Source: Eledone cirrhosa (taxonomy: Eukaryota). From it: a stretch of 64,000 nt of DNA. Positions 7,734 to 63,381 of this stretch are shown here, piece by piece. A program made the position numbers and the translations under genes. Location of the stretch: contig OZ024741.1 in assembly GCA_964016885.1 (NCBI GenBank), positions 68,820,001 to 68,884,000 of the forward strand, read 5' to 3'. Under the pieces are notes generated by a model, which worked only from the letters and a program-made list of their open reading frames with translations, did no database searches and was not told the origin of the DNA. How positions within the stretch are numbered: position 1 is the first letter of the stretch; each line of letters opens with the position of its first letter.

Positions 7734-8232
7734 TATATATATATATATATGTATATATATGTATATATATATGTATATATATATATATATATGTATATAT
7801 ATATGTGTATATATATATGTATATATATGTATATATATATATACATATATATATATATATATATATATATATATGTGTATATATATATTGTTATACTTTG
7901 GGAGGGTCATGTTGCCAATAAGAAACACACGCACCAGTTGCTTTCACTTCAATTTAATTTAATATATATTTATAAATTTACAAATTTATAAATTTCTGGT
8001 TGGTTGGTTGGTTCCACAACCAGATAGTTGTTTATATATATATATAGTCATAGTTCTTTCGTCACACACTCTGTGACCTCTTCAGTGACTGGGGATTTCT
8101 TTCTTCGTTTCTGTGCCTTTCCTTTCTTCTATCCTACGCCATTTTGTTTGTGTGTGGGTTGCGTGCTCAGTTTGCGCATGCGCCACATCCGGGTGTCTGT
8201 GTGTGTTTGTGTTCATTTTTCTATTTTTCTAT

Positions 8233-8745
8233 TTATATTTGTTTGTTTATTTATTTAGAAGGGCCCTAAAGAAACATAATCTCAATATTAAGATAGTAGA
8301 AAGACCTGGTACCTCCGTAAAAACACTTATTAGCAAGACATACCCGTTCCAAAGACCCTCATGTATAGATAAGAAATGTATAACCTGTAAAATAAGCCCC
8401 CATATTAACTGTAAAACTAGAAATGTAGTATATAGCATAAGATGTACTGAAGGACAATGTAGAAACAAAAATATAGTGTACATAGGTGAGACAGCTCGTA
8501 GTATAGGGGAACGAATAAATGAACACTGGCGAGACCTCCAAGATAGTAAAGAATCATCTGTGCTCTACCAACATGCTAAGATAGAACACAGGGGTAAATT
8601 AGAGAGCATAGAAATAAAAATAGAATCCACACACAAGAAAGACGCAATGTTTAGGCAAATTACAGAGGCAGTAAGCATAAAAGAATTAAAACCAAAATTA
8701 AATAGAAAATATGAGTGGAACAGCAACATCACAACTTACAATTAA
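8233..8745 (+). pseudogene. PLE C-terminal Cys-linker + GIY-YIG endonuclease fragment
   Basis: CIDKKCITC...NCKTRNVVYSIRC...VYIGETARSIGERINEH...LYQH...H...RQITEAVSI...LNRKYEW. Confidence 0.85.
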
Positions 8746-9042
8746 GGACAAAATGAAAACACACACACACATAGAACAAACAACTTACAATTGAAAACAC
8801 ACACAAAATGAAAACACACACAAGACAAAATGAAAACACACACACACATAGAACAAACAACCAACCAACAATAAATAAATAAATAAACAAACAAATATAA
8901 ATAGAAAAATAGAAAAATGAACACAAACACACACAGACACCCGGATGTGGCGCATGCGCAAACTGAGCACGCAACCCACACACAAACAAAATGGCGTAGG
9001 ATAGAAGAAAGGAAAGGCACAGAAACGAAGAAAGAAATCCCC

Positions 9043-9087
9043 AGTCACTGAAGAGGTCACAGAGTGTGTGACGAAAGAACTATGACT
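9043..9087 (+). ncRNA. Minimal type I hammerhead ribozyme (family A pLTR); copies at 8046-8090(-), ~23226-23270(-), ~56056-56099(+)
   Basis: AGTCA-CTGAAGA-G-GTCACA(gagtg)TGTGAC-GAAA-GAAC-TA-TGACT. Confidence 0.7.
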
Positions 9088-9630
9088 ATATATATATATA
9101 AACAACTATCTGGTTGTGGAACCAACCAACCAACCAGAAATTTATAAATTTGTAAATTTATAAATATATATTAAATTAAATTGAAGTGAAAGCAACTGGT
9201 GCGTGTGTTTCTTATTGGCAACATGACCCTCCCAAAGTATAACAATATCGGTTTCAACACACGATTTCAGATAAAGAATCTTGCTAAACAAATTCAGAAA
9301 TGTATATATATATATATATATATATATATATATGTGTGTATATATATATATGTGTGTATATATATATATGTGTATATATATATATATATATATATATATA
9401 TATATATATATATATGTATGTATGTATATATATATATATATATATATATATACATATATATGTATGTATATATATATATATATATGTAATATAGTATTTA
9501 CGTATCGAGAAAGTGAAAAAAGGGGGGATAGGTGATACATATAGTTATTTGCCAAGTAGCGTATGCCAAAGGTGCTCGATACTAGTGCCGGCAGTATTAA
9601 ATATTCGAAGTGTTAATATTTAGTGGGCTA

Positions 9631-9806
9631 CGGTGGATTGGCAGTATTGGTAGAGGGTCGGACGCCATATTTGACGTTACGACCCTTGCCATTCTGAGTT
9701 CAAATTCCGCCGAGGTTAACTTTGCCTTTCATCCTTACGGGGTCGATAAAATAAAGTACCAGTAATGCACTGGGTAATTGCTGGCCTTGTGCCAAACGTA
9801 GAAACA
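9631..9806 (+). mobile_element. tRNA-type SINE with 16-bp TSD
   Basis: A/B-box-like TGGCAGTATTGG...GAGTTCAAATTCC, core GCCTTTCATCCTTACGGGGTCGATAAAATAAAGTACCAG; AATATTTAGTGGGCTA at 9615-9630 and 9807-9822. Confidence 0.8.
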
Positions 9807-9839
9807 AATATTTAGTGGGCTAGAGAGTTAGCAGAGCGT

Positions 9840-10122
9840 AAGCACGTGGGAAAGTAAAAATCGGAGAGTAGACCGTTAAAACATGTTTATTTAAAATATC
9901 ACCTACGTACGTTTCGCCCAGTTGGGCTTCTGAAGGGCATAAATAATCACAAGTGTTCCATATATAGTTCGGAAAGAGTTTTGGGGGTTAAATCTACATC
10001 AAGATTCATTGCTCGGAAAAATATCTTGTTTTGATTTTGCAGCAGGTCAAGGGAGGTTACTCTGGCCGGTGTTAGGGCAGTCTTTCCCGGATAATTTTTT
10101 TTTCTTAAAGGACTCAAACATC
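9840..10122 (-). mobile_element. Probable PLE 3'-end remnant with degenerate hammerhead
   Basis: Minus strand GCCCA-ac-TGGGC-GAAA-CGTACG-TA followed by AATAAA; CUGANGA box not canonical; abuts (TA)n. Confidence 0.4.
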
Positions 10123-10660
10123 ATATATACAGTTTATATATATATATATATAAATATATATATATATACAGTATATATATATATATATATATATATATAT
10201 ATATATATATATATATATATATATATATATATATATATATATATATATATATATATATATACAGTATATATATATATATATATGTAGTATATATATATAT
10301 ATATATATATATATATATATACAGTATATATATATATATATATATATATATATATATATATATATATATATATATATATATATACTGTATATATATATAT
10401 ATATATATATATATATACTGTATATATATATACTGTATATATATATATATATATATATATATATATATATATATATATATATATATATATATTATATATA
10501 TATATATATATACAGTATATATATATATATATATATATATATATATATACAGTATATATATATATATAAATATATATATATATATATATATATATATATA
10601 TATATATATATATATATATATATATATATATATATATATATATATATATATATATATAAT
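10121..10660. repeat. Long (TA)n tract punctuated by CAG/CTG; similar tracts at 18127-18513, 20057-20800, 24090-24975, 25245-25541
   Basis: Directly visible. Confidence 0.95.
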
Positions 10661-61045: not shown

Positions 61046-61815
61046 CAGAAATGGAAAGACACACCCAACACTTCATCAACCGCATGCAGTTCTCTGGCTA
61101 CAACCAAAGAGACAGAATCAGAGTATACGAAGGAGCCACAGAGAAGTATAAGACCCTCATAGAACTTGACATGAAAGGAATTTTCCCATTATACAGGAGC
61201 AAATCATGGAATAGCTTAGATAGGGCTAGACATAAGATAGGGAAAGCCACCTCATGGTACGACAACCAGAGATACCAGAGTGTCATGTTTGTGGACGCTA
61301 CTTCTGGAGGGAAATTAGCTAACCAGTGTAGAAAGGCGCTGAGAAAGACCCACTTAAAGATTAAGGTGGTAGAAAAGCCAGGAACCACCATAAAATCCCT
61401 GATCAGCAAAACCTACCCTTTTAAGAAAACCCACTGTACTAATAGGAAATGTAAAGTAAACCCCCGGATAAACTGTAAAACTAGAAACGTAGTCTATAGC
61501 ATAAGATGTACAGAGGGTACTTGCAGAAACATGACAACAACATACATAGGCGAGACAGCTCGTAGCATAGGTGAAAGGATAGACCCACACTGGGGGAAAC
61601 TAAAAGGACGAAAAAACGGTTCAGTACTATACGAACACAACGGTAACATAGACAACATAGAAATTAGAATAATATCTAAACATAGAAATGACCCAGCAGG
61701 TAGGCAAATCAGAGAGGCCAGCGAAATAGAACTTAGAAGGCCAAAGCTAAACAGAAAAAATGAATGGAATAACAACAACACCCAAACAAACAATACTGGC
61801 CTAAGAGAAGTATAA
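61046..61815 (+). pseudogene. PLE thumb/linker + GIY-YIG fragment
   Basis: FINRMQFSGY, PLYRSKSW, SVMFVDAT, NVVYSIRC, YIGETARSIGERI; small in-frame deletions versus copy 1. Confidence 0.85.
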
Positions 61816-62043
61816 ATAAATAAATAAATACATACACAAGCACAATAACAACAAACACATGTAAACACACACTAGTAAACTAAGATAGAATACAATAACC
61901 AAAACACAATCACCCAAACACGAACACACATCAAACACTATACACACACGCAAACGCATGCGCAGAGAAGAAGACAAAAATAAATAAATAAACGGATTAA
62001 ATAAAGATGGCGTAGACATACAATACAACAGGAGGAAACATAA

Positions 62044-62087
62044 TAGCACTGACGATGTTGCAGATGTGCAACGAAAGAACTTTGTTA
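62044..62087 (+). ncRNA. Minimal hammerhead (family B)
   Basis: TAGCA-CTGACGA-T-GTTGCA(gatg)TGCAAC-GAAA-GAAC-TT-TGTTA. Confidence 0.7.
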
Positions 62088-62339
62088 GACTATATATATG
62101 TGTTTGTGTCTATATTATATCTGTATTTTTGACAGTTGATCAGTCAATGGTAACATTGAGGACCGAATAAATTAAATTAACTGATATAAAAGATACATAA
62201 GCGAAAACCAACCAAACAGTGAGTGTGTTCTGTTATTAATTCTGGCAATATTATTACACAAATATGACCCTCCCCAAGTATAACAATATTTGTTTCGATA
62301 CACGATTTCATATCAAAAACCTCGCAAAACTAATATATA

Positions 62340-62973
62340 TATATATATATATATACACAAACTTGTAGTTCCTGTCTGTTTGTTTGTTTGTTCACGAACT
62401 CCTATGGTTTTGGAGATAGACCCCTATAACCATATATATTCTGAAACTACATTGCCCAGGGTACTTGGATATGTATATTTCATTTTAATTAAAGGGTTCC
62501 CCGGGGGCACAAACCCCCGCTGAAAATTTTTTCCTTTCGATTTATTTAAGCCATAGGTAAAGATATGATGCCTATTCACAAAATTTCAGCAAATTTCAAT
62601 AATATTAAGACACCCTAATGGTTAAACCCCCTATAGTGAAAATTTTGGAAGCCCATAACATGAGTATTGGAACTTTGAATTTCTAATTTGAAAATAATGC
62701 TTTACACATTTATGAAATGATCAAGTTTTGAATTGATATTTTGAAATAAATTATGTACAAGAAACTAAATAAGAATAAGATTTAATAATGTAATTTTGAT
62801 TTGATATATTACAAAAAATAATGTTTGCCATTTTTCATGCATTACATTTTACATTGAGTAATATTGAAATGCAGAGTTTTTCTCCATAAATTATATCACT
62901 GATTTAAAATCAATCATCATTTTCTTACAAAAAAAAATTGTGAAACGCAGCAAGGTGCGGGTAATTCGGCTAG
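62340..62973 (+). mobile_element. Non-autonomous Helitron-like element
   Basis: 5' region with CTGTCTGTTTGTTTGTTTG; 3' CGCA-gcaagg-TGCG hairpin then CTAG+T; 5' TC not resolved. Confidence 0.55.
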
Positions 62974-62974
62974 T

Positions 62975-63095
62975 AGAGTTTAAATATTTATTTTATTAAG
63001 GCTCAAGTTCTTGTCTGATGACCCTGCGAGCAAGTAGGTGAAACTCCAAAGTAACAATTTTTAGCCTTACTATTTAGCCTTAATAAAATGAATAT
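62975..63095 (+). mobile_element. Tiny inverted-end element with hammerhead (63011-63057)
   Basis: TTGT-CTGATGA-c-CCTGC(gagcaa)GTAGG-t-GAAA-CTccaaAG-TA-ACAA; ends ATTTATTTTATTAAGGCT / AGCCTTAATAAAATGAAT are inverted; related pieces at 59491-59530 and 60655-60720. Confidence 0.65.
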
Positions 63096-63185
63096 ATATA
63101 TATGTGTGTATATATATATATATATATATATATATATATATATATATATATATATATATATATATATATATATATATATATATAT

Positions 63186-63381
63186 AACGAAGGAAATGTG
63201 GTAAGGAACCAGGTGGACCATAACGCACCAAAGTACTCAATACTTGGGGTAGTAGAGTGGGTAATAGGAACCAGTAAGACCCCGACGGCTGAGCTCAAGC
63301 CGTTTCGACGGCTAATTCTGGACTCAGAATTAGCCGTCGAAACGGCTTGAGCTCAGCCGTCGGGGTCTTACTGGTTCCTAT
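63186..63381 (-). mobile_element. Miniature hairpin element (family G, copy 2)
   Basis: Perfect ~56-bp arms around a GACT loop plus extension; homologous to 25542-25736. Confidence 0.75.

Follow-up and report, generated by a model that had tools for sequence, protein, structure and literature searches.

Head-to-head arms of Penelope-like elements in Eledone cirrhosa: how the two ends of an insertion may be primed

How does a retroelement come to lie in a genome as two inverted copies of the same stretch, joined head to head, only one of which carries a short tail? The question is raised by a 64,000-nucleotide stretch of the 3.0-Gb Eledone cirrhosa genome (OZ024741.1, 68,820,001-68,884,000; the window), whose insertions are, judged by sequence, endonuclease-bearing (EN+) Penelope-like elements (PLEs) of eight families in two clades. 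An earlier note had described about 11 insertions of 7-8 families in (TA)n. Self-comparison and reading of the window bear it out at 12 sites, all in (TA)n and each with one tail-less (N) and one tailed (T) outer end; paired inverted arms occur at 11 of the 12, and eight families are represented (A, B, C, D, E, G, H and I). Inverted head-to-head PLE insertions that bear a tail on one side only are known from the literature (PMC8557442, PMC3846280), and the origin of the inverted repeats and tails is named as an open question (PMC8557442). What appears to be new here is a variant of the mechanism with single-molecule evidence from one family: we think it rather probable that the two DNA ends of a single (TA)n cut both prime on the same sense RNA, each at its own fixed register, and that the two cDNAs are then end-joined.

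The two outer ends of an insertion

Family A positions are given relative to the ATG of its open reading frame (ORF), and L-numbers denote stretches of this genome taken for comparison. Family A was sampled in 140 stretches of 10 kb around listed places on one contig (C1), a sample in which intact copies are over-represented and a few duplicated loci are counted twice (L143/L147, L156); it contains 253 family A arms, or 250 once overlaps are removed. A DNA search of the genome with window 7888-8260 as query returned no match, and exact patterns were used in its place, including an exact 32-nt motif for counting family A copies genome-wide. This motif has 22,881 exact copies, of which 10,170 stop at +26 into AT and 9,805 continue into the tail, so the two-end pattern is not due to chance. 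In the sample, 215 of 253 arms terminate exactly at +26 or +86; start points of inverted arms are thus non-random, as the earlier note expected. AATAT is present at both positions, each matching the (TA)n target, and in families A, B and F the homology to (TA)n amounts to 2-4 nt at both outer ends. These observations support the proposal that both ends of a (TA)n cut prime at fixed AT-homologous sites. A target-matching AT site at every arm start was claimed too broadly: N-end homology reaches 3-7 nt in A, B, C, E, H and I and only ~1 nt at 12610 and 27371.

The same proposal placed one priming event at the RNA 3' end, and in this it is not supported. The family A ORF reads on beyond +86, and read-through copies of B and F also have TAT or AT at the T end and an ORF that continues past it, which argues that the T end is an internal site and not the RNA 3' end. 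In raw Illumina reads from two other samples, compared over window 9175-9300, the element gives way to (AT)n at window 9248 in 2,626 and 2,690 reads, and strand-switch joints are seen as well. A stem joining the +26 and +86 sites was considered and dropped, as folding of the tails gave no common structure.

Independent choice of ends would make half of all pairs one-of-each. The 83 pairs of the family A sample comprise 78 NT, 2 TT, 2 NN and 1 other, and 44 of 48 head-to-head pairs among the first 100 listed places of each arm type are N + T. One-of-each pairs also prevail elsewhere (B 10/12, C 10/10, D 4/5, E 35/46, F 13/19, G 2/3, H 1/2, I 7/8 and, by inspection, J 4/4), with misses in these families being mostly unclassified ends, together with 5 TT and 1 NN. 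Of the 84 unpaired family A arms, an inverted tail piece accompanies 15, all of them N, and another 14 run straight into (TA)n (4 N, 10 T). Eight face an inverted partner with no located end, 2 lie at edges and 45 are unresolved. The statement that the inverted arm always lacks the extension does not hold throughout the window: sites absent from the earlier note include 25822, where both ends are T, and the solo arms of 18514, 20799 and 55997.

A probable common template for both arms

Arms of one family A insertion differ by a median of 1.3%, compared with 6.2% for random arms, and within-pair divergence is also lower in B, C, E, F and I; it is not in the three pairs of D. Four subfamily tags are concordant between arms in 111 of 113 comparisons. 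Individual RNA molecules may be followed more closely through dense blocks of A>G changes, which were first seen in two sampled insertions; a four-edit pattern from these is unique in the genome, and looser patterns gave 8 and 26 matches. Edited family A copies (L038, L083, L099, L100, L185-L208) occur on several contigs and have up to ~100 edits per arm. Guanine is avoided 5' of the edits (0.26 vs 0.47 after A) and favoured 3' (0.48), a bias that we take to be an ADAR-like preference. From their sequence, we interpret these copies as ADAR-type hyper-edited RNAs that were retrotransposed in the germline. The last edit lies at least 47 nt before the ATG in 17 of 19 edited arms, and both start sites are unedited.

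The A>G search yielded 20 insertions. Ten have both arms over the edited zone, of which nine share sense-strand edits and one (L203) does not; nine edited insertions are without a partner arm there (L190, L196, L198, L200, L201, L202, L204, L207, L208). Nine insertions, L099 included, have 304 shared and 20 discordant edit sites, and L100 (= L199) has 8 shared edits with 5 and 2 single ones. Overlap of edit patterns is 0.62-1.0 within insertions (n = 10; in L038 it was measured between the T arm and the internal pseudo-long terminal repeat, or pLTR, of the long N arm). In 396 comparisons between insertions, the median overlap is 0.21 and the maximum 0.54. Such low overlap between insertions indicates that they are not progeny of one edited locus. 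Tag concordance and shared sense-strand A>G changes together argue against a second template and against antisense self-priming. The earlier note had assumed a second template and raised the possibility that the arms of one insertion come from different subfamily haplotypes; neither idea is supported by the tags, concordant in 111 of 113, and private A>G patterns common to both arms of 10 insertions also argue against the former. In an inosine-misreading comparison, meant as a sign of two passes of reverse transcription, 20 of 324 sites were discordant against 14 of 546, the first figure being inflated by new A>G changes, and M22 had 0 of 94.

L203 and L210 differ in kind: the T arm has A>G and the N arm T>C, i.e., A>G along one continuous strand. 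L203:1210-1750 and L210:930-1680 are whole head-to-head units that were retrocopied from hairpin transcripts in one pass. A T>C control pattern had 3 matches in the genome, one of them real (L210), and this one narrow pattern found T>C on both arms in none. Several candidates were rejected: L189, L209 and L211 are not hyper-edited; L190/L191 is not a pair but an inverted segmental duplication; and a circular template does not apply to L038, where two pLTR passes are 7% different and cannot come from one circle. A 4.5-kb inverted segmental duplication, at 324,749,800-324,761,200 of the window's contig (L212, L213), includes an edited family A arm.

A two-ended model and the alternatives

In the model that we favour, the enzyme would cut both strands of (TA)n, and the two target 3' ends would pair with a single sense RNA at AU-rich positions, the +26 site serving one end and the +86 site the other. 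Both ends would be extended toward the RNA 5' end by two reverse transcriptase (RT) active sites, presumably those of a dimer, on that RNA. The second RT would displace the first cDNA or copy a sense second strand made from the same RNA; reading from RNA and reading from a sense DNA strand are indistinguishable here. End-joining would then unite the free cDNA ends. An in vitro counterpart exists in target-primed reverse transcription (TPRT) by PAc (Anolis Poseidon), in which both strands are cut and extended and two start sites bracket the tail (Frangieh et al. 2024; PMC11167929). That system and the model favoured here have in common a pair of internal RT start sites, extension of both strands and a predicted dimer, and in the main text of that study the two sites are not linked within one insertion and no model for inverted repeats is given (PMC11167929).

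Arm lengths and junctions suggest how the arms end and meet. In the 78 family A NT pairs, N is longer in 34, T in 26 and neither in 18, which agrees with separate truncation of the arms as the earlier note had it; its further claim of head-to-head joining is also supported. N is longer in 6 of 21 pairs <1% diverged and, among edited insertions, in L083, L194, L197, L099 and L100. The 5' ends of both arm types cluster at -236..-266 (20/130 N, 17/117 T), immediately before a AAGATGGCG/AAAATGGCG motif that presumably represents a YY1-like site, and the cluster may mark a putative transcription start. No clear pile-up of arm ends occurs at the hammerhead cleavage site (-145) in the family A sample, where 7 ends fall at -148..-141, with one duplicate among them and several in a TATATA stretch. 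Of the 15 partners that consist of tail only, 11 end within +60..+72 (p 6e-6), as would happen if the T polymerase ran into an obstruction before it reached the N site. Microhomology of at least 3 nt occurs at 10 of 28 clean junctions (5% by chance) and is similar whichever arm is longer. Templated inserts occur at some joints, e.g., 56 nt at 60744 from DNA 1.7 kb away; this insert (60990-61045) has 96% identity to 59259-59314 and no other match in 1.4 Mb searched. Templated junction inserts are a mark of end-joining, which these joints suggest.

Side observations on truncation points concern two families. Family A arms at 8253 and 24065 are truncated within ~20 nt of one another, and truncations at -731 and -2770 likewise recur twice. 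One family A insertion (L070/L071) has both arms apparently near full length (~4 kb each) with ~4 kb of other DNA between them. Family E arms (window 25680, 63320 and many loci) mostly end, in both orientations, at a single site behind TTTAG, which resembles a splice acceptor; a start site, a splice site and whole-unit spread are all candidate explanations.

Several observations weigh against two-ended priming on one RNA. Arms are >3.5% apart in 10 of 40 pairs, and in L038 the long and the short arm begin in different pLTR copies. Shared edits do not separate RNA copied twice from DNA copied once or from gene conversion, and the editing analysis covers family A only. The one-of-each rule has exceptions in the 2 TT, the 2 NN (one a mis-pairing), the 1 other pair and the 14 solo arms in (TA)n. 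Start sites in PAc are reported to lack target homology and to be the same on both strands (PMC11167929), whereas the A, B and F ends here share 2-4 nt with the target. N is longer in 6 of 17 unequal pairs <1% diverged and in 13 of 17 at >2.5%, which fits later deletion; the trend is weaker when age is taken from nearest neighbours (7/17, 9/17, 12/19) and may also fit arms whose copying began in separate pLTRs of a single tandem RNA, for which L038 is an example. Finally, 44 of 72 junctions are not cleanly scorable; they were scored as inserts, many via private mutations.

This age trend also leans toward an account that we consider unlikely but worth serious attention, in which the cDNA from the T site folds back, is copied as DNA to +26 and anneals to the other target end, with long N arms produced by central deletion and the likeness of arms possibly kept by conversion. 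Self-priming has been proposed before (in its antisense form, PMC3846280), and fold-back would explain shared edits and tags without a second RT. Arm lengths within pairs are correlated (rho 0.33), near-equal arms are in excess (20 vs 4.2 expected by permutation), and some pairs have a natural palindrome or a 3-bp stem at the centre (L122, L136); several near-equal pairs, which speak for two-ended priming, have a centre of 1-2 nt and no stem for fold-back. Under fold-back, 34 of 60 unequal pairs must have undergone a deletion, among them some whose arms have 0-1 mismatch, and many T-longer junctions have 0-1 nt homology. It leaves unexplained why copying stops at +26 instead of the equally homologous +86, why N arms reach the 5' pile-up with a partner that is a 22-26-nt tail piece (L044, L057), and why there are a +60..+72 cluster and 4 solo N arms. 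L099 and L100 keep common edits despite arms that have diverged at other sites. An antisense-template version predicts T>C on both arms, for which the one narrow pattern searched gave no case.

Arms copied from two different RNAs, with priming at the 3' end of the one and inside the other as the earlier note had it, would account for independent truncation and for the few pairs with arms 5-8% diverged (L038, L066, L127, L132). The internal T end, the concordant tags and the private edits common to both arms, which two transcripts of one locus would be unlikely to match, make this improbable. Spread of pairs as whole units, by reverse transcription of a read-through hairpin transcript in one pass from the T site, did occur in L203 and L210, and some family E junctions recur at several loci. 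It is doubtful to a high degree as the general route: it applies to only 1 of 10 informative insertions of the A>G search, family A junctions are nearly all distinct, and the first pair cannot arise so. Assembly or library artefacts such as fold-back chimeras deserve a mention, because a perfect palindrome next to long (TA)n is difficult to assemble and the arms at 7888 and in M22 are identical. They are very improbable given the median arm-arm divergence, fixed ends in ~20,000 copies, and raw short-read data from two other samples that contain the +26 end and strand-switch joints.

A broader statement can be made, although we offer it tentatively and would not be surprised to see it fall. The default EN+ PLE product may be that of two-ended TPRT, in which a dimeric RT would hold a single RNA at a pair of target-homologous registers that the tail defines, and so copy the same stretch twice; germline-fixed ADAR-edited RNAs would then be single-molecule tags that record this and exclude antisense self-priming.

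The elements of the window, known systems and meaning

Family A is represented by a pair with identical arms, an N arm at 7885..8257 (-) with its outer end at ORF +26 (ACAATAT|AT) and a T arm at 8253..9300 (+) that has a GIY-YIG piece (8248-8742), a hammerhead (9048-9082), the ORF start and a tail (9249-9300). At 23059..24090, a long N arm with EN (-, 23059-24065) is joined to a 27-nt tail fragment (+, 24064-24090), and a solo T arm at 55997..56313 (+) has its 5' end at the -244 pile-up and (TA)n on both sides. The earlier note had singled out 23062 and 54017 for long inverted arms. Both are long, the direct arm at 23062 is merely a piece of tail (+60..+86), and 10660 is a third case. There, family C has a long N arm (10654..11640, -; hammerhead 10758-10704), which other C copies match to ~11200 and over 11078-11644, and a T arm (11642..11940, +; tail ~11859-11940). 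A second C insertion is a near-perfect palindrome (12156..12583; T arm -, 12156-12413; N arm +, 12414-12583) with a hammerhead in each arm. At 54014..55596, family B has a long N arm with EN (-, 54014-55233) and a T arm (+, 55230-55596); at 60741..62334 its N arm (-, 60741-60940) is separated by the junction insert described above from a T arm with EN (+, from ~61043).

Family D (12611..18126), which is Hydra-type, has an N arm (-, 12611-14141) and a T arm (+) with a GIY-YIG ORF piece (14107-15150), a later insertion (~16427-17081) and a tail (~18020-18126). Family E forms two hairpins with T arm - and N arm +, at 25543..25737 (tail 25543-25619) and 63187..63381 (tail 63187-63263). The exceptional family F pair with two T ends lies at 25823..27357 (long arm -, 25823-26980; short arm +, 26985-27357). 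Family G (27372..29644) has an N arm (-, 27372-27637), a T arm (+) that pairs over 29240-29506 with a tail at 29507-29644, and between them a spacer not assigned to a family. Family H is a hairpin (59559..59799, tail ~59750-59799), and family I a palindrome with a hammerhead (60037..60600; arms 60037-60250 and 60253-60466, tail 60467-60600). Solo arms without an inverted partner belong to family K (18515..18931, -, with a hammerhead) and family J (an N arm with ORF pieces, 20800..22983, +).

Around these, scattered pieces of a further hammerhead family (core 63015-63053) lie between TA runs at 59494-59527, 60653-60716 and 62977-63092, and elements nest within one another's (TA)n flanks. Arrays of (TA)n, e.g., at 10135-10658 and 20055-20799, have interspersed CAG/CTG units whose orientation switches within a single array. 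Two long interspersed nuclear element (LINE) copies with (ATG)n ends (150-1510 and 2084-5167) lie between TA-rich runs, the latter with an open 1,027-aa APE-RT ORF that includes a PHD finger. A repeated 600-750-nt element occurs at 16427-17121, 37644-38353 and 51397-52784, with one copy inside the D element and two in tandem. SINE-like repeats are also present and appear to be of a cephalopod type. An Rfam scan of the window at gathering threshold found only the mir-375 precursor (30336-30409, -) and no hammerhead.

Clade assignment draws on EN motifs. EN is linked to A, B, C, D, E, F, I and J, with no link for G, H and K; the family A window piece has a GIY-YIG match, and the copy in L038, readable in two frames, has a weak RVT_1 match with YVDD and DKS motifs. 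L038 is a partial tandem of family A with a unit of 4,151 nt, in which the tail is ORF nt 27-86 and the pLTR overlaps the ORF start. Published clade features are a CX2-5CxxC linker plus CCHH in Neptune/Nematis, and CxCX5C without CCHH and a (TA)n target in Hydra (PMC8557442). The GIY-YIG of A and B lies at the C-terminus, with CCHH and a CX4CxxC linker (CxxxxCxxC before VYSIRCxxxxC..YIG, in both), and these families appear to fit Neptune/Nematis, two clades not told apart here. D, E and F have a CxCX5C linker, no CCHH and a (TA)n target and fit the Hydra clade, to which C, I and J probably belong by EN likeness only. RWK and DKT motifs, expected of a Hydra RT, occur in one RT of L073 that is not tied to any window family.

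The earlier note called all these elements hammerhead-bearing, which is true in part. Canonical cores are predicted in A, B, C, G, I and K, and the window has 12 core matches, compared with 0-1 across 20 shuffles. No canonical core was found in D (0/17), E or F; the first 4 of 9 matches in E, and of 6 in F, sit in adjoining A or K copies. Family H has one weak match in 5, and the J match is likewise weak. Minimal PLE hammerheads have a short or palindromic helix III and a long helix II, features also present here, and form opposite-strand pairs 100-700 bp apart (PMC4209133). Our elements differ in the lack of a canonical core in D, E and F and of a clear arm-end pile-up at the cleavage site.

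Elements with inverted pLTRs among published EN+ PLEs have the same adjacent inverted 5'-truncated copy, head-to-head arrangement, single tail and (TA)n bias, and a pLTR and tail that overlap the ORF start (PMC8557442, PMC3846280); they have a hammerhead in the pLTR, as is predicted here for A, B, C, G, I and K. Their tails are 30-40 nt, compared with 45-140 nt here, and the explanations offered in those sources are EN-mediated resolution or antisense self-priming. One-of-each pairing was counted here, and either arm may carry the ORF. A literature search by title and abstract start, with subscription papers mostly outside it, found no paper that deals with an N and a T end primed as a pair on a single RNA, or with A>G changes as tags of PLE copies.

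LINE-1 twin priming is a related process, in which the second target end primes on the same RNA via microhomology at variable sites and a head-to-head joint results. Its two cDNAs copy different, non-overlapping parts of the RNA; here the same part is in both arms, the arms overlap, and the second site is fixed at 45-140 nt from the first.

The one-of-each rule, AT homology at both starts and shared edits tie the two start sites seen in vitro to single insertions, and sharp predictions follow for the existing in vitro assay. Such a route would yield thousands of hairpin-forming loci, with ~10,000 tail-less arms in family A alone, that are ADAR substrates. Hyper-edited retrocopies could become a general means to trace template molecules in genomes.

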